Shown here: positions 6,174-57,263 of the stretch, piece by piece | How positions within the stretch are numbered: position 1 is the stretch's first letter | How the letters are laid out: each line of letters begins with the position of its first letter | NCBI GenBank assembly: GCA_050246815.1 | Contig: JBFWVI010000009.1 | Span: 3,238-67,237, forward strand | DNA from: Bdellovibrionales bacterium | Lineage (GTDB): Bacteria; Bdellovibrionota; Bdellovibrionia; Bdellovibrionales; UBA1609 | Direction of reading: 5' to 3' | DNA length: 64,000 bases | Notes under the pieces: model-generated | The model's input: only the letters and a program-made list of their open reading frames with translations | Told to the model about the DNA's origin: nothing | Databases searched by the model: none | Position numbers and translations under genes: made by a program

Positions 6174-6241
6174 TCTTTTCAAGCAAGAGTTCGCGGAAGC
6201 GAAAGTTTGCTTGAGAATATGAGAGGCGAAAGCTTTCTCTG

Positions 6242-6254
6242 TGATCTTTGAAAA
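6242..6254 (+). promoter_or_regulatory. Second boxA-like element in the 16S-23S spacer
   Basis: TGATCTTTGAAAA resembles the leader copy at 4255..4267 and lies upstream of the 23S, as in many rRNA operons. Confidence 0.4.
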
Positions 6255-6404
6255 TAGAATATATTTGTTATCGATAGTTAAGTTTTTAACTATCAGCAAA
6301 AAAACCATAAGTTTTTTATTTTTTAGATTAGAGAAAAGATAAGAATTACTACCTAACAAAAATTAGGTTCAAGTAATTCTTAGCAAGGTGAGTTCAAATA
6401 CGAA

Positions 6405-9387
<2,983 letters not shown>

Positions 9388-9434
9388 TTTATTTGAACTC
9401 AATCCTTGCTAAGAATGACTTGTGCTTAATTTTT

Positions 9435-9550
9435 GCTGGTGTCTATAGCGGCGGGGCCACACCTGATCCCATCCCGAACTCAGAAGTTAAGTCCGCCAGC
9501 GGCGATGGTAGTGCAGCGGTAACGCTGTGGGAGAGTAGCACGATGCCAGC
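9435..9550 (+). rRNA. rrf: 5S ribosomal RNA
   Basis: About 116 nt. The terminal helix is GCTGG.../...CCAGC, and the conserved core CCCATCCCGAACTCAGAAGTTAAG is present. Confidence 0.85.
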
Positions 9551-9560
9551 TTTTTTTTGT

Positions 9561-26436: not shown

Positions 26437-27036
26437 TTATTTTTGAATCGAGCAGACTTGTTTGGTTTGCAGGATGGTCATAACGCCATCTGGCACTTCG
26501 AAAGTTTCTGGTTCGTTGTTGAAGTAGCTTTCGTAGCTGAAGCCGTCAGGGCCCTCGATCGCGAATTCGGTACCCGAGATCGGCAGGCTTTGGCCATCTT
26601 GCATTGCGCTGACGAGTGTTTTGGTGCCGTCGAGTTCACGTTGGTAAACATTTTCTGTACGACTGGTTCGGGTTTTGCTTTCGCTGCCGTTGAAAGTTGT
26701 GGTGGTGGTGATGTCTGAAATTTCTTTGAATTGGCCGCCGTTCAATTCTTGCGAGGTGGTGGTGCGGACCGCGCTGTAGGCGTAAACCACTTGTCCGTTC
26801 TGATCTAACTGTTCGCCGGTGGTGCGGTATTCCGCCGCATGAGCTTGCAATGTTTTGGTGCGAGTGGCGCGAAGCATACTTTTTACGACTTCGATCGGAT
26901 GTTGTTCCCCTTTGTCTGCTGTGAACTGTTGATAGCTGGTGCTTATGCAGCTAATTTTTTCGGTCGTGGTCAGAGACGCGTGAGCAGCGGCGCCGGTGAA
27001 GCTTAGGGCAAGTGCGAGCCCAATCGTTAATTTCAT
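26437..27036 (-). CDS. Hypothetical secreted protein
   Basis: The internal ATG at 27036 gives MKLTIGLALALSFTGAAAHA (signal peptide). The protein is Thr-rich and no family was recognised. Confidence 0.5.
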   Translation of the reverse strand: MKLTIGLALALSFTGAAAHASLTTTEKISCISTSYQQFTADKGEQHPIEVVKSMLRATRTKTLQAHAAEYRTTGEQLDQNGQVVYAYSAVRTTTSQELNGGQFKEISDITTTTTFNGSESKTRTSRTENVYQRELDGTKTLVSAMQDGQSLPISGTEFAIEGPDGFSYESYFNNEPETFEVPDGVMTILQTKQVCSIQK

Positions 27037-27160
27037 CGAGTTCCCCCTCGTCGAATGTTGTGAGCGGCAGATTAAGGGGGGCATCTGCGCGAGTCCAGAT
27101 TCGCGTAAAGAGTGAAACCTTTACAGAACTCAATTGAGGACAAAGCGGCGGATTTTGCCG

Positions 27161-33692: not shown

Positions 33693-33699
33693 GGTGGTC

Positions 33700-35772: not shown

Positions 35773-35871
35773 AATTAAATTTTGGAAACCTTCTCATTTT
35801 CTCAAAAAAGACGCCTCATTTTGAGACCGCGGCTTAAGGTCGAGTTCACTTTATCCGATCATATAGACGAG

Positions 35872-38800
35872 ATGGTTGAACGTGGATTGATAAGCTCAAT
35901 TATAACTGCTTGGAGTCGGCGCTTTGCGCCTGCGGTTTTTTTGCTTTCAGCCATTGCACTTTCGGGCTGTAAACTAGAAACCAATATAAAAGACCTGACT
36001 GAGCCAGCATCCGACATTCCGATTTTATCCACTCAAGACGTGAGCATTACCGAAGGCACAACGGCGGCTTACTTGGTGACCATGAACCGGTCGTCCTCGA
36101 TGCCGGTGGTGGTGGTTTATCAGACGCTGCCGCAAACAGCCACCAGTGGCGCGGACTACACGGCGTTGTTTGGTTTGTTGACTATTCCTGCGGGGCAGAC
36201 TTTTGGTTATCTGCCGCTAGCGGCGCTTGAAGATCCCAACTACGAAGGCAATGAAATTTTTCGTGTTGAGTTGAGTGCGGCGAGCAATGCCGTGATGGCG
36301 TCTGCGACCTTGGCCAAAAACATCACGATCCTGGACAACGAGAACCGCCCGAAAGTTTTCATTTCGGATGCGACGGTTGGAGAAGGCGGCACGCTGACGT
36401 TCAACGTGACGACGGATGTGCCGTCGGAGCTCGAGGTGGCGTTCAACTATGCTTCGGTTGCGGGATTGGATCCGGATCCGCTGATGAGAGCTTCGGCCGG
36501 GGCAGATTTTACGAGTGTGGCGGGTCGGATCACCTTGGCGGCGTTGTCGATGGCGACATCGATCCCTGTTATTTCGCTTCAAGACATTTTGGATGAGAAC
36601 GACGAGCTCTTTCATGTGACTTTGACTTCGCTTTCGAACTCGGATCCGGGTGATGTGTCAGGCCTTGGTGAGATCACGGACGATGATCTTGCACCCGTGC
36701 TGTCGGTTTCGGATTTGAGCATCAATGAAGGCGACACGGGCTCTTTGGCAGTGAGTTTGTCGGTGATCTCGGGATTGCCGGTGGTGTTTGACATCGCGAC
36801 CAGCAACGGCTCCAACGTCGACCCGACGTTGAATGCGCAAGCGCCCGGTGATTACACGGCGAAGAGTTTGGTGTCGGTCACGATTGCGGCGGGGCAAGCG
36901 CAAGTGATCGTGACGTTGGTGACAATCGAAGACCTTGTGGATGAGCAAGACGAAGGGTTTTTTGCCACAGTTTCAAATGTGACCAATGCGGGCACCGGTC
37001 AGTTGATTTCAAATGTCACCATTGTTGACGATGATGGCCCACCCTTGATCTACATCACCGACACTGCGGTTGTGGAAGGTGGAACGTTGGCATTTGTGGT
37101 GTCGTTGACCGCACCATCGGCGCTGGATGTGACCTTTAACTTTCAAAGCTTTGATGGCACGGCCACCACGGCTGACAGCGATTACACCGGCATCAACAGC
37201 GCCGGTACGATCCCCATGGGCTCTTTGACGACCCTAGTCTATGTTATCACTACAGCCGACACCAAGTACGAAGCCAACGAGACCATGACCGTGTCTTTGT
37301 CGGCGGTGGTGAACGCGGGCAATGGTGATTTACTGGCCACAGGTACGATAACCAACGATGATTCACCCCCCGGTCTTTATATTACAGATGCGGCTGTGCT
37401 TGAAGGCGAGACAGCGCACTTTGTGATTTCTTTAAGCGAGATCTCTTCGCAAGATGTGACGGTGAATTGGTTCACAGCCAATGGCACGGCAACCACGTCT
37501 GACAGCGATTACACGGGCGTGGCATCAACACTGGTCACGATTCCAGCCGGCTCTTTGACAGTTGGTGCCGCGGTTATCACCGTTGAAGACACGCGCTACG
37601 AAGCCAATGAAACTTATAACGTCAGTCTGCAAACGGCCACTGGTGCCACCATCGTGGATAACACAGGGGTCGGCACGATCACCAATGACGATGTTTTGCC
37701 AACGATCTACATCGATGACTTGACCATGAGCGAAGGTGAGACCGGGCAGTTTGTGGTGTCGTTGTCGACTGCTGCCGGCCTGCCTGTGGTGTTTGATTGG
37801 CAAACTTTCGCCGCAACCGCCACGGCGCCTGGTGACTTTACGGCCGTGACGACCACCACCAGAACTATCCCCGCGGGCACCTTGTTCGTGAATGTTGCCG
37901 TGATCACCACGGAAGACGCCCTGAACGAAGTGAGTGAAAATTTTCAAGTTTCATTGTCTTCTTTAACCAACGCGGCGGCCGGTGACTTGCTTGCAACCGG
38001 CACCATCACCGATGATGATGCGGCCCCCAGCCTTTATATTGTAGACGCCGCAGCCGTGAGCGAAGGTCAAACCAGCGTCTTTTGGGTGACCATGACTGCG
38101 GCCTCGGGCCTTGACGTGACCTTTAACTATCAAAGCGTCGATGGCACCGCAGTTTCAACCCAGGACTACACGGCCGTGGCCTTGACCATGGGCACGATCC
38201 CAGCGGGCAGCTTGTCGGTGGCCATCAATGTAGTGACCATCGATGACCTGGTCGATGAGACCAGCCCTGAAAACTACACCGTCACCTTAACATCTCCCAC
38301 CAATGCCACCATTTCCGATGGCATCGGCCTTGGCACGATCAATGACAACGACAACCCACCCTTACTTTATGTCCTAGACTCTTCTGTCAACGAAGGTGAA
38401 ACGCTGACCTTTTATGCGACCTTGTCGCAAATTTCGGATTTAGACGTGGTGTTTAACTACACTTCATTAGACGGAACCGGTGGTGATCGGGCCCAAGCTC
38501 CTGGCGATTACACTTCGGTGTCGAACCAAACTATGACGATCCCGGCGGGTAGCCTGTCGGTGGCCATGCAGGTGGTCACAGTTGAAGATGTCACCTTTGA
38601 AGCAGACGAAAAGCTCAATATCACTTTGTCTTCTTTAAGCAACGTCACCTTAGGCGATGACGGTCTAGGCGAAGGCACGATCTTAAATGATGACGCTGGC
38701 CCCTTGATCTTTATCGGCGATGCCAGTGTGACCGAAGGTCAAACAGCGGTGTTTGCGGTGACGATTTCTGCTTTGAGCAGCGTGGATGTGATTTTCACCT

Positions 38801-41800
38801 GGAACACCACAAACGACACGGCGACCGGAGGTTCGGATTACACGGCAGTCGGTGCGACAGTTGTGACGATCCCGGCCGGCAGTTTAACCACGGCCGTGAG
38901 TGTTGTGACAATAGATGATGTGGTGGCGGCAGAGCCGGCCGAGACCTTCAACGTGACGTTGACCGGTTTAACGAACGTGAACTCTGGCGACATCAACGGT
39001 GTTGGCACTATTAACGATAACGACACGTCGACGCTTTATATCGGCGATGCCTCTGTGACCGAAGGTGGCACGCTGATTTTTGCGGTGACTTTATCTTTGG
39101 CCACGGGCGTGGATGTGACATTTAACTTTCAAACGGTGGATGGCACGGCGACGACAGCAGACAGCGATTACACCTCGATTGCATTGACTGCGATGACGAT
39201 CCCAGCGGGAAGTTTGACCAGCTTCTTGGCTGTTGTGACCGCTGCGGACACGAAGTATGAAAACAATGAAACGCTGAACGTGACGTTAACGTCAGCGGTG
39301 AACGCCGGCGCTGGTGACATGAACGGCGTGGGTACGATCAACAATGATGATTCGGTGCCTGGGGTCTATATTAATGATGTCACGGTTATTGAAGGCGGTA
39401 CGGCGAATTTCAGTATCTCTTTAAGCGCGGTCTCTGGTGTGGATGTGACTGTGAACTGGGCAACGATTGACGGCACAGCCACCACCGCAAACAGTGATTA
39501 CACGGGTGTCGGAACGACACTGGTCACGATCCCTGCAGGATCGCTCTCGGTTGTAGGCCCGGTCATCACATTGCAAGACACCCTACATGAGAACAGCGAG
39601 ACCTACACAATCACGCTGACTTCGGCCACGGGTGGCACAATCGTCGATGGCTTGGGGCTTGGCACGATCACCGACGATGACACGGCTCCGCAGTTGTCGA
39701 TCTATGATTTGACGATCTTAGAGGGTGAAACCGGCCAGTTTGTGGTGAGTTTGTCGGCGCTTTCGGGGCTTGAGACCGTGTTCTCATGGCAGACGTTTTT
39801 TGGTACGGCCACGGCGCCTGATTTCACGGCTGTTTCAACCACCGTGATCACGATTCCGGCGCTCACAAGTTCGGTGCAACTGCCCTTGATCACGACTGAA
39901 GATCTTTTAAATGAAGGTGATGAGACCTTCTTGGCTTCTTTGTCGGCGGCAAGCAATGCCACGTTCTTAGATGATCTGGCCACAGGCACAATTACTGATG
40001 ATGATGGTCCGCCGATGCTGTATGTGCTGGATGCGGCAAGTGTGACCGAAGGTCAAACAAGTCTGTTTTGGGTGACGCTCACGGCGGCCTCGGGCCTTGA
40101 TGTGACCTTTAGCTATCGCACTTTTAATGACACGGCTGTTTCGACTCAAGATTACACTGCGGTTGGGCTGACCAGTGCGACGATCCCGGCGGGCTCTTTA
40201 AGTGTCAGCTTTAACGTGGTGACGATCGATGACACTCAAGATGAGGTTTCGCCAGAGTATTTTGATCTTTCGATTTCGGCCCCAAATAACGCGACCATTG
40301 CGGATGCTTTAGGCAAGGGCGGCATTACCGATAACGACAACCCGCCCGAGATCTTTATTGCGGATGTCGCGGTGAGCGAAGGTGGGACGCTTGGTTTTTG
40401 GGTGACCTTGTCGGCGCTTTCAGATTTGAATGTGGATTTTAGCTATGTGACGAACGATGGTTTAGGCACAGACAAGGCCGAGGCTCCTGGCGATTACACC
40501 GCGATCACGCTGACGGCGGGTCAAATCCCGGCGGGCTCTTTAAGTCTGTTGATTAATGTGGTGACGATTCAAGAGAGCATTTTTGAGGTGAACGAGCAGT
40601 TGACCGTCACCTTAAGTGCGCTTTCCAACGCCACTTACGGTGATGACGGCATCGCCACGGGTACGATCACCAATGACGATGCGGGGCCAAGTATTTTCAT
40701 TGGTGATGCCAGCGTGACCGAAGGTCAAACGGCGGTGTTTGCAGTGACGATTTCTGCTTTGAGCAGCGTGGATGTGATTTTCACTTGGAACACCACAAAC
40801 GACACGGCGACCGGTGGTTCGGATTACACCACAGTCGGTGCGACAGTTGTGACGATCCCGGCTGGAAGCTTAACCACGGCCGTGAGTGTTGTGACAATAG
40901 ATGATGTGGTGGCAGCAGAGCCGGCCGAGACCTTCAACGTGACGTTGACCGGTTTAACGAACGTGAACTCTGGCGACATCAACGGTGTTGGCACTATTAA
41001 CGATAACGACACGTCGACGCTTTATATCGGCGATGCCTCTGTGACCGAAGGTGGCACGCTGATTTTTGCGGTGACTTTATCTTTGGCCACGGGCGTGGAT
41101 GTGACATTTAACTTTCAAACGGTGGATGGCACGGCGACGACAGCAGACAGCGATTACACCTCGATTGCATTGACTGCGATGACGATCCCAGCGGGAAGTT
41201 TGACCAGCTTCTTGGCTGTTGTGACCGCTGCGGACACGAAGTATGAAAACAATGAAACGCTGAACGTGACGTTAACGTCAGCGGTGAACGCCGGCGCTGG
41301 TGACATGAACGGCGTGGGTACGATCAACAATGATGATTCGGTGCCTGGGGTCTATATTAATGATGTCACGGTTATTGAAGGCGGTACGGCAAATTTCAGC
41401 ATCTCTTTAAGCGCGGTCTCTGGTGTGGATGTGACTGTGAATTGGGCTACGGTTGACGGCACGGCCACCACCGCAAACAGTGATTACACGGGTGTGGGAA
41501 CAACACTGGTCACGATTCCTGCAGGATCGCTCTCGGTTGTAGGCCCGGTTATCACATTGCAAGACACCCTACATGAGAACAGCGAGACCTACACAATCAC
41601 GCTGACTTCGGCCGCAGGTGGCACAATCGTCGATGGCTTGGGTCTTGGCACGATCACCGACGATGACACGGCTCCGCAGTTGTCGATCTATGATTTGACG
41701 ATCTTAGAGGGTGAAACCGGCCAGTTTGTGGTGAGTTTGTCGGCGCTTTCGGGACTTGAGACCGTGTTCTCATGGCAGACGTTTTTTGGCACGGCCACGG

Positions 41801-50800: not shown

Positions 50801-53800
50801 ACATCTTTAAACGAACCGGTCTGACTTGGGTTCAAGAATCTTACCTCAAAGCCGGTAACAGTGAAGCCAACGACGAGTTCGCCCGGGGCGGAGTTGCCAT
50901 TTCGGGTAATTTAGCGGCCGTGGGTTCGATTCGTGAGGATAGTATCAGCAGTCAAGTGATCAACGGCACGGCCTCGGCAACTGATAACGATGGGGTTAAT
51001 TCTGGCGCGGTCTATGTGTATCGGCGCACCGGCAACACCTGGGTGCAAAGCGCCTACTTAAAAGCCAGCAACGGAAAAGCCGGTGATTTATTTGGTAGCA
51101 GTGTCGCAATCGATGGTGACACTTTGATTGTGGGGGCAGAAGAGGAGTCCTCCACCGCCACTCAAGTGGCGAATCAAGCTTGGGCGCCTGCATTCGCGCA
51201 AGGCAGTTCAATCGGTGCGGCCTATGTGTTCTATTACAAGGGTGCGCCCGAGGTGGTTATCCAGCAAGCTTCCACGCAGGCTGATCCAACTTCAAGCCTG
51301 CCCATCGCGTTCAACGTCGCCTTTTCGAAACCAATTTCGGCCGGCACCTTCACCGATGCCGACATCACTCAAGGCGGCACAGCGACGGGCATCACTTGGT
51401 CGATCACCAATCCGTCGGGCGATAATCGCAACTTCGTTTTACAGGCAACGGCGGGCACAGCGGGCACTTACATTCCAAGCGTGGCGGCCGGCCTAGTGAC
51501 AGATGTGGATGGCAACACCAACTTGGCGTCTTCGAGCAGCTTTGATAACAGCGTCACATATGCACCGCCGAGTTATTTATATATTAGTGACGCCTCGGTT
51601 CTTGAAGGGGGCACGCTTGTATTCAATGTGAGCCTTGATGTTACATCCACCAGCGAAGTGACGTTTAACTATCAAACAGTCAATGGTACGGCCACCACCG
51701 CCGACAGTGATTACACCTCAGTGGCATTGACCGCATTTACAATACCCGCCGGCACATTGACCACCAGCTTGTTTGTGGTCAGCACGCCGGATACTCGCTA
51801 CGAAAATGACGAGACTTTGAGTGTCACTTTAACCTCGATTGTGACCGCGATCCCAGGCGATACGGACGGCTTAGGCACTATCCAAAACGACGATGCCGTG
51901 GTTGGCATCAGCGTCTATGATGTGGCGATCAATGAAGGCGAAACCGCACAATTTGTGGCAAGCTTAAGTGCCGTTTCAGGCTTAAATGCAGTCTTCCAGT
52001 GGCAAACCATCAACGGAACCGCGACTTCAGCTAGCGATTACACCGCGGTCAGTTTGACCACTGTGACCATTGTGGCCGGTCAGCTAACCATCTTGCTGCC
52101 GGTCATCAGCACAGAAAATGCGACTGCAGAACCCACGGAGCAGTTCACAGTGAGCCTGAGTTCAGCCACCAACGGGAATTTTGTCGACCCGGTGGCGATT
52201 GGAACTATTTTAGATGATGATGTGGCCGCGTTCACTTGGGTCGGCACCACGGGTGATCAAAAGTGGACCACTGCGGCCAACTGGTCCACCGGCACTGTGC
52301 CGGGAAGTGCGGATATTGCCATCTTTAATAATGTTTGTGCGACTCTTTGCGCTGCCAATATTGATGGCAACATCACGGTGAGCGGTATTCTTTTAGAGTC
52401 CACTTACACGGCGACACTTTCACAAAATACGGGTCAGCCGATCACCGTTGGTTTTGATGATTTGATCATTGCTGGTGGAGCGTTCCAGGCGAGCAATGCG
52501 GATATCCGCTTAAACGATGCGGTTTGGCAGCAAGGTGGCACGGTCAATATGGGTTCGGCCAATTGGTACTTTGATAACTGCCGAATTGACGCCGGCACGT
52601 GGAATGCGCAGACCTCAACAGCTCACATGAATGGGTCGGGATTTTCTGGGTCACTTATCGGGGCGGCCACATTTAACAATTTATCTTTAGTGCGTGATAC
52701 GTCTTTAGGAAATCCAACCGAGGCTCAAGTCAATGGAACGATCACAGTGGCAGGAACACTGTTACTCGATAAGGTCGGCTCCAACGCGCATCAATTGACG
52801 GCGGTTGGCAGTTCGAAAATCGTCGCTCTTGGCAATGTGAACGCGGTTGATTTTGACGGTGGTGACACCGGCTTAATTGAAATCGGCGGCACCGGAGTTC
52901 AGACCCTCACGGGTGGGATCGGTGGACAACTGCCCAATGTCGCTGTGATCAAAACGGGTGGTTCGCTCGATTTGGTGGGCACCATCGACTTTGCGGAAAG
53001 TCTCGGTATGGCTTCGGGAACCGTGAATGCCGGCACATCGACAGTACGATTCGTCAACACGGGTAGCATCACGGTGGTTCAGGGTGGCGTTGATTTTTAC
53101 AATATGGAATTTCGCAAAGACACATCTGCTGGTAATTTGACAGTGACCTTGGGTGCTGGGAGCCATTTGTTTGCGGATGGGGACGTGCTTTTTGAAAGCA
53201 CGGGTTCTAATCGAATGAACGTCGTTCATCCCAGCTCGAGCAGTATTGTTGTTCAAGGGGATATCACTGCGACTAAGGTTTACGATACGCCATCATTGCG
53301 TACTAATAAGCCCAGTGGGACACAAACGATTACGGGGGTCGCGGGGGCACAGCTTGGGGCAATACACCTAGGCAGCGCATCCACGGTTAATTTAGTTGGT
53401 ACCATAGACATCTTGGAAGGCTTCGAGAACTTGAGTACCGCGACAGTTAATCCTGGCACTTCGCTGGTTCGATTTATTAACGCGCCAGATGTGGCCGCCA
53501 ACAGCTCCGCAATTAATTTGGGTGCTGGAAATTACCTCAACCAAGTTGTTTTCAATAAATCGTCTGTATGGAACACAATAAACGGAGTGGTGACCATCAC
53601 CGGGAACTTGACGATCGACAATAGCAACACAGGTAACGGGATTAATTCCGCACCGGTGCAAGTGCAAGGCAATGTAGTGATGTTGGACAACGATGAGGGC
53701 ACCGGCCGCATCGAAATGACAGGGGCCGCCCATACCACCGTCACCATGGTGGCAAGTTCGGCTTGGCCCACGGGCGGCTGGACTGTGAATAAACCCGGAG

Positions 53801-56800
53801 CCAGTGTCAGATTGCTTTCAAACATCACGCTGTCACCCGCAGGAACGGACTTAACTCTGACGGCGGGAACAATCAGCCTATCGGGTTACCACTTAAGCGT
53901 ACGCGATGTTTTGACCATGGCCTCGGGTACCGTGATTGACAAAGGTTGCGGCACCGTGCGTGTCAATGGCACGTTGTTGCCAGATGGCCCCTACAGTTCC
54001 GGAACCATTACCAACACATCTCCATCCATCAACCTTTCCGTCAATGATGTGACCGTTGGTGAGGCCGATGGCAACGCCACATTTACCGTGACTCTCAGTG
54101 GGGCACATTGTGCAGCGGTGACATTTAATTACGCGACCGTCAATGGGACGGCGGCGCAGCCTGGTGATTACACGTCAACTTCTGGGGTGGGCACGATTGC
54201 TGCGGGACAGCTGACGTTGGCGGTGAATGTGCCGATCATCAATGACTCAGATTACGAGGGGTCAACAGATGAGACCTTCACGCTTTCGCTCTCTGGAGTT
54301 TCGGGTGTGGCCGTGCTGGATCCTTATGGTGTGGGTTCCATCACCGACAACGATGCCGCGCCAGTTCTTTTTATCTCTGACGCCACCGCCACAGAAGGCG
54401 GAACACTCGACTTCATAGTGACTTTGGCCAGCAGCAGCGGTAGCGAAATCACATTCAACTTCCAGACCTACAACGGAACCGCCACCACGGCTCAAGATTA
54501 CACGGCACAAAGCGGATCGGCCACCATTGCGATAGGCGCCACTTCGGTGACCATCAGCGTGGTGACACTTGATGACACAACTGATGAGGAGAGCCCTGAA
54601 AGCTTAACCCTCACAATTAGTTCAGCAACCAATGCCGCGATTGTCGACACCACCGGAGTCGGCTCGATCAACGACAACGACAATGCGCCTTTGATTTTTG
54701 TCAATACGGCTTCCGTCAACGAGGGTGGGACGCTTCAATTTGGTGTTTCGCTTTCGCAGAGTTCGGATCGAGAAATCACCTTTCAGTACAGCACAAATGA
54801 TGGCGCTGGTTCAGACAAGGCTGAGGCCCCCGGTGATTACACGGCGGTGACAAATCAAGTTGTGACTATTGCGGCGGGCAGCCTCACCACAAGCCTTGGC
54901 GTTGTCACTGCGCAAGAAACTACTTTCGAAATGAACGAGAAAATGAAAGTGGTGTTGTCTTCTTTAGTCAACGTCACCTCTGGCGACACAGGGGAGGCCG
55001 AGGGTACGATTAGCAATGAAGACACTTTCACGCCTGTGGTTGTCGCAGTTTATCCGACCAATGGTGCGAACTGGAACGACTACGTCAAGTACGACAATGA
55101 TAACGGCGGCACCAATACTTTCAATCAAGACGACATAGCCTGCACGGGTGCCGAAACCGGCCGCTATGGCCAATTGAACGGTTGTATCCACGGTGGTGAA
55201 AGGCGCAAAGTCACTGTCACCGGTTATACTTCGTGCGCGAACTTAACCATGACGGATTCTGTTGGCGCCTTTGATTGGAAGTGTATCGTCTCTGGGGGCA
55301 CAGCCACGTTTTACTCCACAAGCTTTAACTCGGGCAAAGGTTTGGCGGATCTTATTAATGCAACGTCTTGGAAGAACATAACCGTCACGGTTTTAGATGG
55401 TGTGACCACGCTGGGGACTTCGGCCGCCGCCGCATGGGCATCAAATATCGTAGCGGCGTTGCCTGATAATAACAGCACTGGTGCAGTCGTTCAACTTGAC
55501 GGCACTGATGATGACACCAGTGGGCCCGATTTCGGCATTACGGCGGGTTCGATCCTGACGCGCTCGACGGACATGACTGCAAGCCGTGGGTTTAACCTGA
55601 ATGCGGATAGACTTAGCATCGTGACTCTTGGCACGGCCAGAATCACTTACGATCCAAGTGCGGGAGCAGTTTGTGATTGGACGACAGGTGAAACGACCGG
55701 CGCAACTACGTCAGTATTTCTCTGCACCGGAGGTCAAAAATTTATATGGATTGAAGGCAATTTTGCTGGGGATACCTCGTCGACCAATGACTTGCTCATG
55801 ACTCTGGTGAATACAAAGCATTCGCGAGTTCATAAAACACGATTGACTCGATCTGAATACGAAACATTTTATTTGTACAATTCGAACTCAAACATGGTGA
55901 CGGATTTGGCGATCCATACCGGCAGTGCATACTACAACACGTTCGGTGTTGACGCTTCTTCATACAACACATTTGTTGGGGTCAAGGTTTCAAACTCAAT
56001 TGCAGCCAATCCTTATGTCGCGATCTATGTGACGGGAGCTTCGTCTTACAACGTTTTTCACGAGATCGCGCTTTCAAATGCCCCACACTATGGCTTTTTT
56101 CTTGAAAACGGCACCAATAACACGATTTCAAAAGTGGTTTTGGCCAACACCACCGGTCGCGCGTATTATATTAGTGGAGCTCAGGGTTCTGTGGCCCGAA
56201 ATACCACAAGTCACCTGACGATGGCCAACGCCGAAGGGATCATTTTAGAAGGGTATACCTTTGGGGCTGATTACCAGACCCTCAACCAGGCTGTGGTTGC
56301 CAACGGAAGTGACTATGCCGCGCTCTATGTCTATGGTGCGAACAATGCAAAAATATCGCAATTTGTAAGCGGTCATAATTCGGTGGACCTGACCGCGAGC
56401 GGCAGCAATGGATTTTTCACGAACAATATGCTGATTGGCCCGTCGGCATCGGGGGCATGTAATGGCAATACCGGGACAAACACCGGTCTTGGCGCATTTA
56501 CCTGTACAAACCAAGGATCTTCGGACGCCAACTTTGTCATCGGCAGCTCGATTGACCTGACCAACTCATTTGTTGGCAAAGCGACTAGTGATTCGGCCAA
56601 CACATCTGACACATCCGGTACTGCGGCATACAATACGATCACTGACTTTTTGAACTTTGAAAATTTCTATCGTCTATGGGGGCTTGATGGTTCGGGAGCC
56701 TTCCCTCATGCCAGCCAAGAGGGTCGTTGTTCAGGCACCAGCACTTGTCGAATTTGGGATTGGCGTTTGAAATCCACGGATACTGTTCTTCGTAATAAGA

Positions 56801-57111
56801 GCAATGATGGCTCCACTTCGAACGACGCCTTTACGGCCAACAGCACTTGCCCGGCCGCAGTCCATGGCAACAAGGCCCTGGCGGATCAACAGACCTCGGT
56901 CAACACCTTCTTGATCAACGCCCAAGAGATCATGTTGGACGGCGTGGGCGACGACGACGGCCTGTGCGAAAGCAGCGAAGAGTGTATCTATTCACCGAAC
57001 TTCGGGGCCTATCAAGGTGAGGGTAATTATAAAGCGGGTGGCACGTGCACCTTCCAAAACGGCACGATCACCGGCGTGATCATGTATGCTTATCCAACCA
57101 ACGGTGGCTAA
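35872..57111 (+). CDS. Giant modular surface lipoprotein (about 7,080 aa from ATG 35872; ORF open from 35782)
   Basis: A single uninterrupted frame of 21.3 kb. The ATG at 35872 gives MVERGLISSIITAWSRRFAPAVFLLSAIALSGC, a canonical lipobox. I counted 30 Calx-beta-like domains, 21 propeller blades in three groups of 7, three Ig-like segments and two beta-solenoid modules. The protein ends in a Cys-rich beta-helix C-terminal module. Confidence 0.85.
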   Translation: MVERGLISSIITAWSRRFAPAVFLLSAIALSGCKLETNIKDLTEPASDIPILSTQDVSITEGTTAAYLVTMNRSSSMPVVVVYQTLPQTATSGADYTALFGLLTIPAGQTFGYLPLAALEDPNYEGNEIFRVELSAASNAVMASATLAKNITILDNENRPKVFISDATVGEGGTLTFNVTTDVPSELEVAFNYASVAGLDPDPLMRASAGADFTSVAGRITLAALSMATSIPVISLQDILDENDELFHVTLTSLSNSDPGDVSGLGEITDDDLAPVLSVSDLSINEGDTGSLAVSLSVISGLPVVFDIATSNGSNVDPTLNAQAPGDYTAKSLVSVTIAAGQAQVIVTLVTIEDLVDEQDEGFFATVSNVTNAGTGQLISNVTIVDDDGPPLIYITDTAVVEGGTLAFVVSLTAPSALDVTFNFQSFDGTATTADSDYTGINSAGTIPMGSLTTLVYVITTADTKYEANETMTVSLSAVVNAGNGDLLATGTITNDDSPPGLYITDAAVLEGETAHFVISLSEISSQDVTVNWFTANGTATTSDSDYTGVASTLVTIPAGSLTVGAAVITVEDTRYEANETYNVSLQTATGATIVDNTGVGTITNDDVLPTIYIDDLTMSEGETGQFVVSLSTAAGLPVVFDWQTFAATATAPGDFTAVTTTTRTIPAGTLFVNVAVITTEDALNEVSENFQVSLSSLTNAAAGDLLATGTITDDDAAPSLYIVDAAAVSEGQTSVFWVTMTAASGLDVTFNYQSVDGTAVSTQDYTAVALTMGTIPAGSLSVAINVVTIDDLVDETSPENYTVTLTSPTNATISDGIGLGTINDNDNPPLLYVLDSSVNEGETLTFYATLSQISDLDVVFNYTSLDGTGGDRAQAPGDYTSVSNQTMTIPAGSLSVAMQVVTVEDVTFEADEKLNITLSSLSNVTLGDDGLGEGTILNDDAGPLIFIGDASVTEGQTAVFAVTISALSSVDVIFTWNTTNDTATGGSDYTAVGATVVTIPAGSLTTAVSVVTIDDVVAAEPAETFNVTLTGLTNVNSGDINGVGTINDNDTSTLYIGDASVTEGGTLIFAVTLSLATGVDVTFNFQTVDGTATTADSDYTSIALTAMTIPAGSLTSFLAVVTAADTKYENNETLNVTLTSAVNAGAGDMNGVGTINNDDSVPGVYINDVTVIEGGTANFSISLSAVSGVDVTVNWATIDGTATTANSDYTGVGTTLVTIPAGSLSVVGPVITLQDTLHENSETYTITLTSATGGTIVDGLGLGTITDDDTAPQLSIYDLTILEGETGQFVVSLSALSGLETVFSWQTFFGTATAPDFTAVSTTVITIPALTSSVQLPLITTEDLLNEGDETFLASLSAASNATFLDDLATGTITDDDGPPMLYVLDAASVTEGQTSLFWVTLTAASGLDVTFSYRTFNDTAVSTQDYTAVGLTSATIPAGSLSVSFNVVTIDDTQDEVSPEYFDLSISAPNNATIADALGKGGITDNDNPPEIFIADVAVSEGGTLGFWVTLSALSDLNVDFSYVTNDGLGTDKAEAPGDYTAITLTAGQIPAGSLSLLINVVTIQESIFEVNEQLTVTLSALSNATYGDDGIATGTITNDDAGPSIFIGDASVTEGQTAVFAVTISALSSVDVIFTWNTTNDTATGGSDYTTVGATVVTIPAGSLTTAVSVVTIDDVVAAEPAETFNVTLTGLTNVNSGDINGVGTINDNDTSTLYIGDASVTEGGTLIFAVTLSLATGVDVTFNFQTVDGTATTADSDYTSIALTAMTIPAGSLTSFLAVVTAADTKYENNETLNVTLTSAVNAGAGDMNGVGTINNDDSVPGVYINDVTVIEGGTANFSISLSAVSGVDVTVNWATVDGTATTANSDYTGVGTTLVTIPAGSLSVVGPVITLQDTLHENSETYTITLTSAAGGTIVDGLGLGTITDDDTAPQLSIYDLTILEGETGQFVVSLSALSGLETVFSWQTFFGTATAPDFTAVSTTVITIPALTSSVQLPLITSEDLLNEGDETFLASLSAASNATFLDDLATGTITDDDGPPMLYVLDAASVTEGQTSLFWVTLTAASGLDVTFSYRTFNDTAVSTQDYTAVGLTSATIPAGSLSVSFNVVTIDDTQDEVSPEYFDLSISAPNNATIADALGKGGIADNDNPPEIFIADVAVSEGGTLGFWVTLSAVSDLNVDFSYVTNDGLGTDKAEAPGDYTAITLTAGQIPAGSLSLLINVVTIQDVVAEPSELLTMTLSALSNAAHGDDGIATGTINDNDVVPFTWVGTTGDGLWSTAGNWSGLTVPTAANVATFTNVCLGANCNATVDVAVDVQGLNMTSAYSGTITQAAGVALRTGNSDWLMAGGAFIGSSGAITINRDFNQSGGTFTAGTQTIEVQRNWTSTAGAMNMTGSTVEFKGASGTTINIGAQQFYNLSLLKDAWTAAAATGSVTIANDFSLNQGFNAFNQGRVTGGTFDVVNRVNLGLNNGGYGPWALRLVGTGAQTIAGGIDSESALNQLHIAKPSGLVSVEGTIGIDSDFTYMSGSTFNAGTSAIHFINGYGTLSLASDLDFYDVKIAKYQYANVTIVGAGTMQVNHDLTLDASNVLLGGALLGGSIRAMGNVYANSTGGYLGGSTTVLYLAGTGAQTIVGGDGDLPSVVINSTGTVDLTGTFAVVGSFIHTNSAGLSAGTSTVYLESTGTSTVSMGAQSLNNVNVSSGSGRSMVIAGALTINGNAELSGSAGGNTLDGGTLVAKKNVSITSADFDGGTASILLNGTGAQTISNPGGGAWTSGKNYVDKVSGAVELAGNTTFALAQDMDFTSGTINMRGYDLGIRDALTMASGTTIYTDCGVLTYNGGSSSLGGTIIDGTPGALLSVNDVTVSESAGNATFTVTLAAPSCAPTIFNFATVNGTAVQPGDYTSTSGVGTIPAGQQSWTTNVPIIDDTLYEGATDETFTFSLSAVMGAPVLDPLGVGSITDNDAQPNIFVNDVTVTEGQTANFVISLSNATTSDVTFTWETVNGTATSGADYTGVGATSATIAAGQLAITVAVVTTDDVVFSEGDENYNVTLTSIANASAGDTNGVGTINDNDNAFLFIADADVVESGTLLFVVTMSAVSGSEVTFSFQSYSGLNSVMGGAAATSGTDFTAISGTATISAGVLAVTLPVVTTVDATYEGLENLSVTISAPVGASITDSTGLGFIHNDDCPATGWCQQAYIKAINADAGDIFGEGVSIMDDTLVVGAPYELSSQTTITNDTTASSDNSASQSGAAYVYVRSGNTWVQQAYIKRGKHDGYFGRSVSINGDTLAIGAFLDVSGSTQIFNGTGMAYDSPGGAEYGAVHIYKRTGSTWVQEAFIKASNSRANTDFGNGLNLAKDSLVVASASESSNQSYITQGTGSSTDASSAAAGAVYIYRRTGNTWVQEAYVKASNRNNNDRFGFGTAFDGQTLAVGAIYEDSNGTGVYNGTGASADNSSADSGAVYVYARSGTWVQQAYIKSALTGGSAYFGYDVALSGDTLVVGEPLGRASAVLINGTQAPVDENVYGTATVYKRTGSTWVQQAILKPPVQNYAQIFGAAVAISQDRVAVAAYAETSLESQVFNGTAVPNPNAGTDETGAVFVYARTGSTWVQQATLKPSNPDNVSSFGAPAYDTATFSPHRSLAISGDTIVVGSNAERSNQRGITNGPWASLNRSAISSGAAYVFHYKGAPQVTIQQAATQVDPASSLPIEFSVDFGKAISTATFTDADITQNGTATGITWSITNPSGDNRNFVLQATGGTAGTYTPSVAAGLVTDVDGNTNLASSTEYDNSVTYNIPRNLFITDAEVVEGGTMVFTVSLDGTAGSDVTFNYQSYSGLSTQLGGAAAAQGTDFTATSGAATIPMGSLTLALLVVTTVDATYEGMENLSLTLSSASGATISDSTGLGFIHNDDCPTTGWCQQAYLKGATADANDLFGYWTAIHRDTVVVGAPYESADTSSVLNGTGGSSSNGRSRTGAAYVYKRTGGTWVQEAYLKGATTDVDDFFGDTVAIHEDTIVVSSYGEGSSSSTIVNGTGGSSNNSHSNGGAAYVFKRTGNTWVREAYLKAGTPKDSSYFGEAVSIHGDTILVTALSDSSGVSGVLNGTGGSTDTSVSSAGSAYIFKRTGNTWVREAYLKAANPDASDYFGSSAALDRDTAVITAAWESSGTSTVLNGTGGSADNSVNQVGAAYVFKRTGNTWVQEAYLKPYTAIVAYMFGQYDTAISGDTIAIGANGDSSNATGITHGTGGPADTSGSSYSGAVYIFKRTGSTWARQAFIKATNAGSWDQLGSWVSLSGDLLAAGADSEDSYQSLVSSGTLASSTNDGTDIGAAYIFRRTGNTWVQDAYIKPSNGDTGDLFASVRIDGDTLVVGARGESSNLTGVINGPYASINNSAVSSGAAYVFHYKGAPQVTIQQAATQVDPASSLPIEFSVDFGKAISTATFTDADITQNGTATGITWSITNPSGDNRNFVLQATGGTAGTYTPSVAAGLVTDVDGNTNLASSTEYDNSVTYNIPRNLFITDAEVVEGGTMVFTVSLDGTAGSDVTFNYQSYSGLSTQLGGAAAAQGTDFTATSGAATIPMGSLTLALLVVTTVDATYEGMENLSLTLSSASGATISDSTGLGFIHNDDCPTTGWCQQAYMKVQWGKRLGESTSVHNDTVVVGATTHSGTDSGVINGTGMPGDSAPLNSGMAVVYARSGSTWVRQATLLPPAPDTFDYFGRKVRVSGNTAVMSTGDEDSLATGVINGTGAAFNEGASASGAALVYKRTGNTWVQEAYLKASNAEADDGFGFAIDLDEDTVVVGAYKEDSSVTGITAGTGGSSDNTAADAGAVYVFKRTGNTWVQEAFLKANNTGADDQFGYSVAVSQNTVVVTAPNEDSSLTGVSNGPGFTDNELGANDGSAYVFRRTGSTWVQEAILRSSGAGGQLFFGNDIDISADSIIVANYLDYSDETGVKNGTDGPINSDASASGAAYIFKRTGLTWVQESYLKAGNSEANDEFARGGVAISGNLAAVGSIREDSISSQVINGTASATDNDGVNSGAVYVYRRTGNTWVQSAYLKASNGKAGDLFGSSVAIDGDTLIVGAEEESSTATQVANQAWAPAFAQGSSIGAAYVFYYKGAPEVVIQQASTQADPTSSLPIAFNVAFSKPISAGTFTDADITQGGTATGITWSITNPSGDNRNFVLQATAGTAGTYIPSVAAGLVTDVDGNTNLASSSSFDNSVTYAPPSYLYISDASVLEGGTLVFNVSLDVTSTSEVTFNYQTVNGTATTADSDYTSVALTAFTIPAGTLTTSLFVVSTPDTRYENDETLSVTLTSIVTAIPGDTDGLGTIQNDDAVVGISVYDVAINEGETAQFVASLSAVSGLNAVFQWQTINGTATSASDYTAVSLTTVTIVAGQLTILLPVISTENATAEPTEQFTVSLSSATNGNFVDPVAIGTILDDDVAAFTWVGTTGDQKWTTAANWSTGTVPGSADIAIFNNVCATLCAANIDGNITVSGILLESTYTATLSQNTGQPITVGFDDLIIAGGAFQASNADIRLNDAVWQQGGTVNMGSANWYFDNCRIDAGTWNAQTSTAHMNGSGFSGSLIGAATFNNLSLVRDTSLGNPTEAQVNGTITVAGTLLLDKVGSNAHQLTAVGSSKIVALGNVNAVDFDGGDTGLIEIGGTGVQTLTGGIGGQLPNVAVIKTGGSLDLVGTIDFAESLGMASGTVNAGTSTVRFVNTGSITVVQGGVDFYNMEFRKDTSAGNLTVTLGAGSHLFADGDVLFESTGSNRMNVVHPSSSSIVVQGDITATKVYDTPSLRTNKPSGTQTITGVAGAQLGAIHLGSASTVNLVGTIDILEGFENLSTATVNPGTSLVRFINAPDVAANSSAINLGAGNYLNQVVFNKSSVWNTINGVVTITGNLTIDNSNTGNGINSAPVQVQGNVVMLDNDEGTGRIEMTGAAHTTVTMVASSAWPTGGWTVNKPGASVRLLSNITLSPAGTDLTLTAGTISLSGYHLSVRDVLTMASGTVIDKGCGTVRVNGTLLPDGPYSSGTITNTSPSINLSVNDVTVGEADGNATFTVTLSGAHCAAVTFNYATVNGTAAQPGDYTSTSGVGTIAAGQLTLAVNVPIINDSDYEGSTDETFTLSLSGVSGVAVLDPYGVGSITDNDAAPVLFISDATATEGGTLDFIVTLASSSGSEITFNFQTYNGTATTAQDYTAQSGSATIAIGATSVTISVVTLDDTTDEESPESLTLTISSATNAAIVDTTGVGSINDNDNAPLIFVNTASVNEGGTLQFGVSLSQSSDREITFQYSTNDGAGSDKAEAPGDYTAVTNQVVTIAAGSLTTSLGVVTAQETTFEMNEKMKVVLSSLVNVTSGDTGEAEGTISNEDTFTPVVVAVYPTNGANWNDYVKYDNDNGGTNTFNQDDIACTGAETGRYGQLNGCIHGGERRKVTVTGYTSCANLTMTDSVGAFDWKCIVSGGTATFYSTSFNSGKGLADLINATSWKNITVTVLDGVTTLGTSAAAAWASNIVAALPDNNSTGAVVQLDGTDDDTSGPDFGITAGSILTRSTDMTASRGFNLNADRLSIVTLGTARITYDPSAGAVCDWTTGETTGATTSVFLCTGGQKFIWIEGNFAGDTSSTNDLLMTLVNTKHSRVHKTRLTRSEYETFYLYNSNSNMVTDLAIHTGSAYYNTFGVDASSYNTFVGVKVSNSIAANPYVAIYVTGASSYNVFHEIALSNAPHYGFFLENGTNNTISKVVLANTTGRAYYISGAQGSVARNTTSHLTMANAEGIILEGYTFGADYQTLNQAVVANGSDYAALYVYGANNAKISQFVSGHNSVDLTASGSNGFFTNNMLIGPSASGACNGNTGTNTGLGAFTCTNQGSSDANFVIGSSIDLTNSFVGKATSDSANTSDTSGTAAYNTITDFLNFENFYRLWGLDGSGAFPHASQEGRCSGTSTCRIWDWRLKSTDTVLRNKSNDGSTSNDAFTANSTCPAAVHGNKALADQQTSVNTFLINAQEIMLDGVGDDDGLCESSEECIYSPNFGAYQGEGNYKAGGTCTFQNGTITGVIMYAYPTNGG
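36031..42666 (+). other. Array of 20 consecutive Calx-beta-like domains within the giant protein
   Basis: About 110-aa units with the pattern (I/V)xDxxVxEGxxxxFxVxLSxxSxxxVxVxxxTxDGTAxxxxDYTxxxxTxxIPAGxxxxxxxVxxxxDxxxExxExxxVxLxxxxN, each ending G(T/S)IxDDD or xNDN. Confidence 0.75.
38690..42666 (+). repeat. Tandem in-frame duplication, 2 x 1986 bp (6 Calx-beta-like domains per copy)
   Basis: Copy A (about 38690..40675) and copy B (about 40676..42661) align at an offset of exactly 1986 nt (662 codons). Only about 6 aa differences occur over the first 620 aa or so. 38929..39404 and 40915..41390 are identical by eye (476 bp). The copies diverge near 40570/42556. Confidence 0.9.
42667..44444 (+). 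other. Beta-solenoid-like module 1 of the giant protein
   Basis: Begins VPFTWVGTTGDGLWSTAGNWSGLTVPTAANVATFTN. It continues as about 590 aa of Gly/Thr/Asn/Ala-rich, loosely periodic sequence. It is a diverged paralog of 52228..54010. Confidence 0.55.
46915..47645 (+). repeat. Dispersed direct repeat, copy 1 (about 730 bp; Ig-like + Calx-beta-like segment)
   Basis: Nearly identical to 49066..49796 at an offset of 2151 nt (717 codons). I found a single mismatch (GGCGCACCT vs GGCGCGCCT). The encoded 243 aa are identical. Confidence 0.9.
49066..49796 (+). repeat. Dispersed direct repeat, copy 2
   Basis: See 46915..47645. The duplicated antisense ORFs in the track (46956..47351 / 49107..49502 and 47239..47430 / 49390..49581) mirror this repeat. 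Confidence 0.9.
52228..54010 (+). other. Beta-solenoid-like module 2 of the giant protein
   Basis: Begins AAFTWVGTTGDQKWTTAANWSTGTVPGSADIAIFNN. Its length and composition match module 1. Like module 1, it is followed by three Calx-beta-like domains, the first with an internal Cys (GAHCAAV versus APSCAPT). Confidence 0.55.
55024..57111 (+). other. C-terminal Cys-rich module with right-handed beta-helix-like repeats
   Basis: About 695 aa bracketed by AVYPTNGANW at its start and MYAYPTNGG-stop at its end. A central run of roughly 22-25-aa repeats reads ...YNTFVGVKVSNS..., ...YNVFHEIALSNA..., ...NNTISKVVLANT... (pectate-lyase-fold style). Many Cys occur in the flanks. Confidence 0.5.
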
Positions 57112-57263
57112 GAAGTAACCCCAGTCTTTTGGGGCAATTTTCTCGCCATTCGTAACATGTTGAAAATAAAGGTATTTTTTGCCGTCCGTGGAGTTCTTGT
57201 GATGGGCCTGCCTTCCGGCCCAAATTCTCATGGGGCAGGCTTGTCTGGGGCGGGCAAAACTCT

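Follow-up and report, generated by a model that had tools for sequence, protein, structure and literature searches.

A giant, predicted lipoprotein of a Bdellovibrionales bacterium joins Calx-beta arrays and propellers to a Cys-rich beta-helix head

Introduction

The giant adhesins of the repeats-in-toxin (RTX) type, such as LapA of Pseudomonas, MpIBP of Marinomonas, and SiiE of Salmonella, are very acidic proteins of thousands of residues, in which a rod of ca. 100-aa, Ca2+-binding beta-sandwich extenders has ligand modules near its distal end and which are tethered to the outer membrane by one end. They are exported C-terminus first by adjacently encoded ATP-binding cassette (ABC), membrane-fusion, and outer-membrane proteins of a type I secretion system (T1SS); they feature GGxGxD repeats, a C-terminal signal, an N-terminal retention plug, and few or no Cys residues. 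Here, a gene is described whose product resembles these proteins in size, acidity, and putative layout, but which has an N-terminal lipobox, 30 Cys residues, a folded, Cys-rich beta-helix at its end, and no adjacent T1SS. The gene fills a third of a 64,000-nt stretch of DNA (hereafter "the window"; positions 3,238–67,237 of contig JBFWVI010000009.1, assembly GCA_050246815.1) from a metagenome-assembled genome (MAG) of an uncultured Bdellovibrionales bacterium. It had been noted in an inspection of the sequence letters alone (hereafter "the original prediction"), and the computational analysis that followed is reported below.

Two other comparisons are instructive. In animals, ADGRV1/VLGR1 and the FRAS1/FREM proteins are very long extracellular proteins that form Ca2+-dependent fibers or links and consist largely of Calx-beta domains, tens of them in tandem; they are eukaryotic and have transmembrane or matrix anchoring, and the shared domain family is the only evidence that they are related to the present protein. 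PulA is a lipoprotein that is processed by Sec and Lsp and held at the cell surface by its N-terminal lipid, and its secretion genes need not adjoin its own. It differs in being an enzyme and in its size (about 1,100 aa); its type II secretion is one candidate route for the giant protein.

BapP of Pseudoalteromonas tunicata is a Ca2+-dependent adhesin that is needed for surface attachment; like the present protein, it has a propeller, repeats of the Calx-beta type, and, by prediction, a Sec signal at its N-terminus, but it is far smaller, with 12 repeats, one propeller, a type I signal peptide, and an adjacent MacB-like export system (PMC12153261). It also is without the solenoid and the beta-helix head described below. 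In the same phylum as the present organism, Bdellovibrio bacteriovorus displays mosaic adhesive trimer (MAT) fibers on its surface; their tips are diversified, and one of them is specific for prey glycans (PMC10769870). A conserved scaffold, a variable tip, and several paralogues are shared by these fibers and the head family detailed below. The MAT proteins differ in forming phage-like trimeric fibers, some with S74 chaperone domains (PMC10769870), and Pfam detected no S74 or other MAT-type domain in the giant protein. Finally, very large genes have been described in Omnitrophota, which are putatively predatory, uncultured bacteria, and an action of the products on other cells was proposed (bioRxiv 10.1101/2023.11.21.568195). 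Those proteins are much larger than the present one, with C39/S8 peptidase and SecA-like domains and conserved type II secretion/pilus neighbors; Calx, FG-GAP, and lipoprotein are nowhere mentioned in the paper (bioRxiv 10.1101/2023.11.21.568195).

Reading frame and domain architecture

The translated open reading frame (ORF; all coordinates are collected in Table 1) contained one stop only, the terminal one, and the next-longest ORF of the window encodes 826 aa. By exact look-up, the product is GenBank MGE3385866.1 (7,056 aa, initiated at TTG 35941, on a 72,975-bp contig), which carries the name [quoted passage not shown]. The upstream S9 peptidase gene and the giant gene are found together in the NCBI MAG GCA_050187745.1 (contig JBFWXE010000018.1), and the version in the sister MAG is MGE0762764.1 (6,394 aa). 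Logan short-read contigs also carry the locus at 99.99% identity; one run with the locus, SRR27751815, is cited in a landfill-metagenome paper. The GC content is 0.51–0.55 over the gene and about 0.50 around it, a slight rise that fits the Thr/Ala/Gly/Ser/Val-rich composition of the product.

Hidden Markov models (HMMs) were applied for all five kinds of module, and the resulting order was c20-S-c3-[b7-i-c]x2-b7-i-c2-S-c3-H, where c is a Calx-beta domain, S a beta-solenoid, b7 a seven-blade propeller, i a linker, and H the C-terminal head. The original prediction had claimed a single 21.3-kb ORF with a lipoprotein signal, 30 Calx-like domains, 21 propeller blades, and a C-terminal Cys-rich beta-helix. 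The gene, whose 7,109 codons contain no stop, recurred in the sister MAG and in the short-read contigs; an HMM trained iteratively on repeats of the protein itself returned Calx arrays of 20, 3, 1, 1, 2, and 3; a blade HMM delineated three groups of seven abutting blades, 21 in total, of about 70 aa each; and the order of the modules was exactly the listed one. The head and the signal, which also were upheld, are treated below.

Only two Pfam families, Calx-beta (PF03160) and FG-GAP_2 (PF14312), matched the giant protein, both well above threshold. PF03160 scored 87–134 bits per 800-aa segment (cut-off 27), with E-values of 1e-35 to 1e-39 in the 20-domain array; the scores of Pfam LapA on the Calx repeats (26.8 and 17.6 bits) were below its cut-off of 27. 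When aligned in register, the repeats displayed acidic positions typical of the family, i.e. D/N-D-D at the end of nearly every unit and conserved E/D positions, and we infer that these domains bind Ca2+. PF14312 scored 122–146 bits (cut-off 23) in its three best segments and recognized 7 stretches in propeller 1. The junctions between Calx domains and propellers share the motif DDCPxTGWCQQAY, whose two Cys residues are six residues apart and probably close a small disulfide loop that locks the junction.

The beta-solenoid modules had no sequence match in Pfam, NCBIfam, or the PDB, even at permissive thresholds. Their opening FTWxG...W...NW and their GTGxQTI motifs resemble those of the PATR (autotransporter-associated beta-strand repeat) family, but neither PF12951 nor TIGR02601 matched in the Pfam and NCBIfam searches at E-values up to 1–5. 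Among 5.8 billion protein clusters, only 20 homologues were located, some of them from Bdellovibrionales; four of Bacteroidota type carry a type IX secretion system (T9SS) sorting domain. The AlphaFold2 (AF2) model calculated from the 20-homologue alignment consists of short beta-strands only (predicted local distance difference test score (pLDDT) of 83, predicted template-modeling score (pTM) of 0.80). Foldseek found no significant match to this model, the best being EtpA (E = 0.095), SepA, Hbp, and the MpIBP beta-helix; these non-significant matches are beta-helical adhesins and passengers. The model thus supports the predicted solenoid as a shape, whereas membership in a curated family, PATR included, was not upheld. 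The linker of ca. 110 aa that follows each propeller occurs in up to 20 tandem copies in other giant proteins. Its assignment as Ig-like is plausible; the family signal consisted of weak Big_5 matches in three of ten family members, and this is the weakest point of the architecture. The displayed sequences of the first two linkers are identical, and the wider stretch is 98% identical.

The mature protein has a calculated mass of about 721 kDa, a pI of about 4.05, and a net charge of about -503. Of its 30 Cys residues, 29 are not the anchor; these are mostly in close pairs, 14 are within the head, and the pairing fits folding in an oxidizing compartment. There was no sign of a membrane-spanning segment: hydrophobic stretches of 9 or more residues are absent, and hydropathy over 19-residue windows peaks at 1.84, with the ten top-scoring windows all inside Calx domains. 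The 7,109 residues contain no match to GG.G.D or to a looser pattern, and LPXTG and PEP motifs were not found.

The C-terminal head and its family

For the interpretation, the head (Table 1) is a firmer basis than the repeats. Searches of Pfam and NCBIfam returned no direct family match, and no Pfam family was identified in the last 800 aa. The AF2 model is a right-handed parallel beta-helix (pLDDT 72, pTM 0.84), and Foldseek aligned it with 7w1c, 2uvf, 7xz9, and 6k0s at a probability of 1.00 and E-values of 1.5e-4 to 1e-3. The structural neighbors include the K1 capsule lyase (7w1c), a GH28 exopolygalacturonase (2uvf), and the fucoidan lyase FdlA, together with a GH87 glucanase, RbmB, alginate epimerases, and phage tailspikes or tailspike depolymerases. 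From these models, the head is predicted to be a Cys-rich beta-helix of the pectin-lyase fold, in agreement with the original prediction. Enzymes and tailspikes of this fold (7w1c, 2uvf, FdlA, and the HK620 tailspike) are comparable in having a variable right-handed beta-helix of similar length flanked by conserved parts for attachment or capping; they differ in that identities to the head are 7–12% and that they have no counterpart of its Cys-rich N- and C-caps. The profile of the head family marginally reached AlgG (E = 7e-4), and PDB sequence searches with the solenoid or the head yielded nothing useful beyond this.

Thirteen homologues of the head were retrieved from the protein database (665–1,115 aa, 27–47% identity), 11 of which cover 92–100% of the module. 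Some, from Bdellovibrionales or Bdellovibrionia, are named "right-handed parallel beta-helix repeat-containing protein"; PF13229 and/or PF05048 are present in 5 of the 13, and 3 of 12 match TIGR03804. A scan of one genome per species of the Genome Taxonomy Database (GTDB) gave 221 head loci that were confirmed by tblastn. The best 80 of these are mostly from Bdellovibrionota (Bdellovibrionales, Bacteriovoracaceae, Oligoflexia, and Pseudobdellovibrionaceae), Myxococcota, and Leptospiraceae, with a few from Gammaproteobacteria and some from MAGs labeled Nitrospirae; several paralogues often occur in one genome. Two loci (CALQIT020000053.1 and CALQIT020000016.1, our L013 and L027) are from a MAG labeled "Streptomyces griseus". 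The proteins look like Gram-negative lipoproteins, and therefore this label and those of Nitrospirae/Nitrospiraceae, or the binning, are doubtful.

The head usually ends its ORF. Most of these ORFs encode 600–1,300 aa, and the largest encode 2,431 aa and at least 2,588 aa. Where the ORF is 5'-complete, the usual N-terminus is a signal peptide that ends in Cys; the strict lipobox pattern (defined in the following section) matched roughly half of them, and most of the others are near-canonical by eye. The domains that precede the head are variable (fn3, TIG, Ig, and Calx, the last in 5 of 81 ORFs), and a propeller or a solenoid was found before the head in none of the 81. The family is marked by a conserved N-cap (NWNDYVK...C..H.GE.RKV...) and a Cys-rich C-cap (GLCE..E.C.Y.PN.G.YQG.G). 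In 52 full-length members, the caps are conserved (mean top-residue frequency 0.45–0.61), and variability peaks in the helix core (0.24–0.31). Judged from these sequences, the head defines a widespread, hitherto uncurated lipoprotein family whose plan appears to be a lipid anchor, a variable stalk, and a capped beta-helix head, and of which the giant protein is the extreme member.

The identity of the top structural neighbors, all of them enzymes, raises the question of whether the head is itself an active polysaccharide depolymerase (lyase or hydrolase), in which case the protein would be a tethered enzyme on a long stalk that strips capsule or exopolysaccharide (EPS) at a distance instead of only binding it. 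We find this doubtful. There is no conserved acidic or basic cluster on the helix core, which is the least conserved part; with the invariant residues confined to the caps, a catalytic site cannot be assigned. Further, the matches to enzymes are at the level of the fold, and no family of the CAZy type was matched when the head was searched against Pfam and NCBIfam.

Start codon and signal peptide

ATG 35872 is the sole in-frame ATG upstream of the lipobox. The N-terminus that it gives, MVERGLISSIITAWSRRFAPAVFLLSAIALSGC, has a positively charged n-region with RR, a 12-residue hydrophobic core (h-region), and the lipobox L-S-G-C, which are the sequence features of a type II (lipoprotein) signal peptide (...SRRFAPAVFLLSAIALSGC; the lipobox was defined as [LVI][ASTVI][GAS]C at the N-terminus). 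The lipobox Cys is residue 63 of the ORF and residue 33 from this ATG. An independent, Prodigal-type call on a short-read contig (L086) begins at the same ATG (L086 11886, equivalent to window 35872). In contrast, the GenBank start at TTG 35941 ("MLSAIALSGC...") cuts off the n-region and most of the h-region, and the GenBank/PGAP call of the 6,394-aa protein in the sister MAG likewise begins at the equivalent TTG. The TTG start probably is a mis-call, and the ATG is the probable start, as originally predicted; it is probable rather than proven because none of the candidate starts is preceded by a clear Shine-Dalgarno sequence. As a practical lesson, the start recorded in GenBank strips the protein of its signal peptide.

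A Tat signal (S-R-R-F) was considered and rejected: F-A-P, the three residues that follow RR, are at odds with the rule RR-x-[FGAVML]-[LITMVF]. The Tat route was also judged implausible for a Ca2+-binding, multidomain cargo of 7,000 aa.

Block duplication and assembly collapse

Self-comparison of the protein revealed repeats at several scales. Three copies of a 662-aa block of six Calx domains were recognized, of which the second and third share about 99% identity and the first shares about 60% with either. Another threefold repeat is the propeller-linker-Calx block (60–98% identity), and a block of solenoid plus three Calx domains occurs twice (30–58% identity). By this pattern, the gene has grown by nested in-frame block duplications. 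The original prediction was silent both on the 99%-identical internal duplication and on the head family.

The two near-identical copies (A and B in Table 1) are 97–98% identical in DNA and 99% in protein, with about 50 differing sites. Over 600 codons, 43 differences are synonymous and 6 are non-synonymous; because the differences are mostly synonymous, both copies are real and under purifying selection. The version in the sister MAG is shorter by exactly one 1,986-nt in-frame block, and its single copy (L085 15011–16982) is a mosaic of copies A and B. The window and the sister MAG were compared over the first 11.8 kb of the gene, to window position 47758; nearly all differences fall within the repeat, and three more are at 45145–45235, near the start of propeller 1. 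The short-read contig L086 stops at 38787, which is the start of the repeat. The simplest reading of these comparisons is that the shorter version arose by collapse of the repeat during assembly. The gene would thus be a clear case in which short-read assemblies silently collapse an in-frame 2-kb repeat.

That public assemblies disagree (7,056 vs. 6,394 aa) and that such repeats are error-prone in metagenome assembly might also suggest that assembly produced the giant frame as an artefact or that the gene is a decaying pseudogene whose expression has ceased. We regard this as extremely improbable. The discrepancy in length is exactly one in-frame block; over the 11.8 kb compared, the mosaic copy and the clustering of nearly all differences in that block point to collapse in the shorter assembly; copies A and B differ at many, mostly silent sites; and no stop interrupts the 7,109 codons. 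The giant frame is a genuine coding sequence under purifying selection.

Related giant proteins

The rarity of the architecture was assessed with an exhaustive HMMER search of representative proteins, using as the query 1,200 aa that span Calx-propeller-linker-Calx-propeller. At E < 1e-3, 51,543 proteins matched; the component domains are therefore common. Giant proteins were drawn from the best 150 of these matches. P0037 (7,842 aa, N-terminus ...LLVAC) has nine seven-blade propellers, and P0038 (5,868 aa, MVSGC..., probably truncated) has nine linker domains and seven propellers. Eight Calx domains followed by four propeller modules constitute P0039 (4,241 aa, ...LLFSAC), and 28 Calx domains and one propeller P0048 (3,823 aa, ...GLVAC). 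Long tandem Calx arrays characterize P0079 (4,628 aa, ...LLTVSC; 33 domains plus one more) and P0094 (7,304 aa, ...LVLNNC; 27 plus six more). P0040 (WP_369795332.1; 4,314 aa), from the cultured marine predator Bacteriovorax sp. BSW11_IV, has six propellers, and its called N-terminus is without a lipobox. Both P0039 and P0094 report 42,188 bp as their longest Logan contig; they may be adjacent genes in a locus of tandem giant lipoproteins.

Among the best 150 matches, the solenoid and the head were combined only in the two versions of the window protein itself, and the exact module order appears to be species-specific as far as the searched databases show. The domain combination, which had been called unusual, is so in its exact order, confined to the two MAGs of this species; giants built of its components, however, recur. 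Giant lipobox-bearing Calx/propeller proteins constitute a recurrent, uncharacterized class with members in Bdellovibrionales and Bacteriovorax, the others being metagenomic. Literature queries (Bdellovibrio with Calx-beta, Bdellovibrio with FG-GAP, and Leptospira lipoprotein beta-helix) returned nothing that describes the architecture. The anatomy is striking, yet related giants were already present, unremarked, in public data.

Export and genomic neighborhood

Neither the S9 peptidase genes upstream of the giant gene nor rpsA and the genes for SppA, a HIT protein, and a rhomboid protein downstream of it encode a secretion component, and the wider neighbors include a phosphonate ABC importer and a major facilitator superfamily transporter. 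The original prediction had listed the missing secretion genes, RTX nonapeptides, T1SS signal, and autotransporter barrel; the motif scan, Pfam, and the AF2 model concur. Specifically, no C-terminal barrel or N-terminal two-partner secretion domain of a type V secretion system was found (Pfam recognized only Calx-beta in the first 800 aa), and no T9SS C-terminal sorting domain (PF18962 or similar) matched the window protein. Export and anchoring had been presented as a puzzle. To our knowledge, the Sec, Lsp, and Lol pathways are never encoded beside their cargo; the lack of adjacent secretion genes is thus expected for a lipoprotein substrate of this type and is no puzzle.

The only tripartite system of the window is a cluster of an OEP protein, a HlyD-family adaptor, and a MacB-type ABC protein. 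The presence of all three parts in one cluster, and the precedent of BapP, in which a Sec-type signal accompanies an adjoining MacB-like tripartite system (PMC12153261), could implicate it in export of the giant protein. This is very unlikely: a distance of 22 kb separates it from the giant gene, and the genes in between, for cytochrome, transporter, and peptidase proteins, are unrelated; two head loci whose called genes were compared (L003 and L004) are without such tripartite neighbors; and MacB-type pumps are common housekeeping systems. Those two loci have no neighbors in common with the window or with each other, the S9 linkage included. No convincing terminator was found between the S9 genes and the giant gene, and a promoter consensus scan detected no sigma-70-like site upstream of the latter; the S9 peptidase genes may be co-transcribed with it.

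Proposed function

Taken together, the architecture and the head family make it somewhat probable that the giant protein is an N-terminally lipid-anchored, Ca2+-stiffened fiber of the cell envelope with a sugar-recognizing head. Surface exposure, passage across the outer membrane, and the nature of the ligand are all matters that we infer. The precursor would cross the inner membrane via Sec, acquire its lipid at Cys33, and pass to the outer membrane via Lol. It would arrive at the surface by a general route that is not encoded nearby, such as one for surface lipoproteins or a type II secretion route like that of PulA. Once the protein is outside, Ca2+ would rigidify the Calx-beta rod into a fiber of roughly 0.15–0.2 μm (estimated at about 4–5 nm per beta-sandwich domain). 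The lipid would hold the N-terminus at the membrane, and the rod would push the propellers and the distal head outward, where the variable face of the helix would bind, and possibly cleave, a polysaccharide of another cell or of a matrix, in the manner of a tailspike. In a Bdellovibrionales cell, the most likely use would be long-range attachment to prey or to surfaces. The protein would then be a Ca2+-dependent repeat adhesin on a lipoprotein chassis, not a categorically new system.

Several points weigh against this proposal. The organism is known only as a MAG, and its predation is assumed from taxonomy; the Bdellovibrionales label in GenBank makes the predatory lineage hinted at in the original prediction plausible, and prey adhesion is a hypothesis. 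The start codon is disputed between two gene callers (35872 vs. 35941), no candidate start has a clear Shine-Dalgarno sequence before it, and the signal peptide is long (33 aa). We know of no characterized surface route in this phylum for a lipoprotein of such size. The core of the head scored below the threshold of Pfam Beta_helix (18.3 bits, E = 0.0018, vs. a cut-off of 25.9), its likeness to polysaccharide-active enzymes is limited to the fold (TM scores of 0.27–0.47 at 7–12% identity), and the invariant residues of the family are located in the caps and not on the helix.

The same anatomy could belong to a scaffold of a matrix, coat, or biofilm, either in the cell's own envelope or shed from it, that would form Ca2+-dependent cross-links among cells, EPS, and minerals while the head binds the cell's own exopolysaccharide. 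This alternative is a possibility to be taken seriously, although it is not probable. Calx-beta/propeller adhesins that have been tested, such as BapP, serve biofilm formation and surface attachment, not predation (PMC12153261). The head family is also present in the non-predatory lineages Leptospiraceae and Gammaproteobacteria and in MAGs labeled Nitrospirae; AlgG, its nearest sequence-profile match, acts on the cell's own alginate; and the source is a landfill community, in which biofilms are expected. On the other hand, the head family and the Calx/propeller giants are most strongly enriched in Bdellovibrionota and Myxococcota, and a hypervariable core that occurs in several paralogues within a genome is more in keeping with a range of foreign ligands than with a single polymer of the cell itself. 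Were the protein a generic matrix component, the finding would be ordinary.

A bolder version of the fiber proposal, offered tentatively and in our estimate unlikely to be correct, is that the head represents a previously undescribed class of lipid-anchored, tailspike-like recognition (or depolymerase) modules of predatory and of surface-gliding bacteria, with the giant protein as a long-reach, prey-capturing member of ca. 0.2 μm that crosses the outer membrane by an uncharted route. The Cys-rich caps would serve as a scaffold for folding and attachment, the hypervariable face of the beta-helix would set ligand specificity, and the several paralogues of one genome would constitute a recognition repertoire. 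Its users would be Bdellovibrionota and Myxococcota, and also Leptospirales.

If the lipid-anchored fiber proposal is correct, giant Ca2+-dependent fiber adhesins would not be tied to type I secretion, and the design of a rod with distal ligand modules would have arisen on a lipoprotein chassis; it would raise the question of how a Gram-negative cell displays a 720-kDa lipoprotein. The lipobox-bearing giants of 4–8 kaa in Bdellovibrionota could be candidate prey- or surface-recognition factors alongside MAT fibers. Two uncurated modules are worth describing, i.e. the Cys-capped beta-helix head (221 loci) and the beta-solenoid of ca. 560 aa (about 20 proteins).

Other features of the window

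Table 1. Coordinates of the giant gene, its modules, and other features of the window.
Feature	Nucleotides	Strand	Residues of the ORF	Basis or remarks
ORF, 7,109 codons plus stop	35782..57111	+		Frame scan, translation
Probable coding sequence, 7,079 aa	35872–57111	+		ATG start
Putative type II (lipoprotein) signal peptide ending LSGC	35872..35970	+		Sequence; start used by independent gene call
20 Calx-beta domains, about 110 aa each, acidic DDD/E motifs, three 6-domain super-repeats	35977..42708	+		PF03160, own HMM, self-BLAST
Tandem duplication of 1,986-nt (662-aa, six-Calx) block	38761..42546	+		Copy A about 38761–40560, copy B about 40747–42546
Predicted beta-solenoid module 1, about 560 aa, begins FTWVGTTGDGLWSTAGNWS, three ca. 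125-aa internal super-repeats	42679..44382	+	2300–2867	AF2 model
Three Calx-beta domains	44380..45501	+		Pfam, own HMM
Seven-blade FG-GAP_2 propeller 1	45463..46956	+	3228–3725	PF14312, blade HMM
Linker of ca. 110 aa (probably Ig-like) plus one Calx-beta	46957..47679	+		Own HMM; weak Big_5 hints
Seven-blade FG-GAP_2 propeller 2	47635..49107	+	3952–4442	Pfam, blade HMM
Linker domain plus one Calx-beta	49108..49824	+		Own HMM, self-comparison
Seven-blade FG-GAP_2 propeller 3	49786..51249	+	4669–5156	Pfam, blade HMM
Linker domain plus two Calx-beta	51250..52281	+		Own HMM
Predicted beta-solenoid module 2, paralogue of module 1 (30–38% identity)	52237..53835	+	5486–6018	Self-comparison
Three Calx-beta, paralogous to 44380–45501 (about 58% identity)	53833..55077	+		Own HMM, self-comparison
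C-terminal head, 678 aa, 14 Cys; N-cap, predicted beta-helix core, Cys-rich C-cap (...GLCESSEECIYSPNFGAYQGEG...)	55075..57108	+	6432–7109	Homologues, AF2, Foldseek, conservation profile
Junction Cys pairs	about 45448–45468, 47620–47640, 49771–49791		3223/3229, 3947/3953, 4664/4670	
Two tandem paralogous S9 prolyl-oligopeptidase genes	31575–35772	+		1-nt gap between them, 100 nt to the ATG of the giant gene
Terminator-like GC hairpin plus T-rich tail	57119..57134	+		8 nt after the stop codon; consensus scan only
OEP / HlyD-family adaptor / MacB-type ABC (FtsX) tripartite cluster	9706–13950			Directly follows the rRNA operon; giant gene lies 22 kb downstream
Multi-heme cytochromes, ResB/CcsA-type cytochrome c assembly genes, Fe-S/FAD oxidoreductase	14124–14948, 15505–17985, 19343–22725	+, -, +		

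Two multi-heme c-type cytochromes, with the cytochrome c assembly and oxidoreductase genes of Table 1 beside them, are encoded between the tripartite cluster and the S9 peptidase genes; one of 826 aa matched MtrC/MtrF-like domains, and the matches of another, of 274 aa, were below threshold. Such a gene set, which is like those of extracellular electron transfer, was unexpected in a Bdellovibrionales genome. The usual arrangement of bacterial rRNA operons places tRNA-Ile and tRNA-Ala together in the 16S–23S spacer; in the operon of the window (4029–9551), tRNA-Ala(TGC) is upstream of the 16S gene, and the spacer contains only tRNA-Ile(GAT). Four ORFs of 215–443 aa had no match in Pfam, i.e. 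those at 17982–19313 (-), 24074–24943 (+), 26437–27084 (-), and 63257–63949 (-). All but the last of these match genes of the sister MAG by position and strand.

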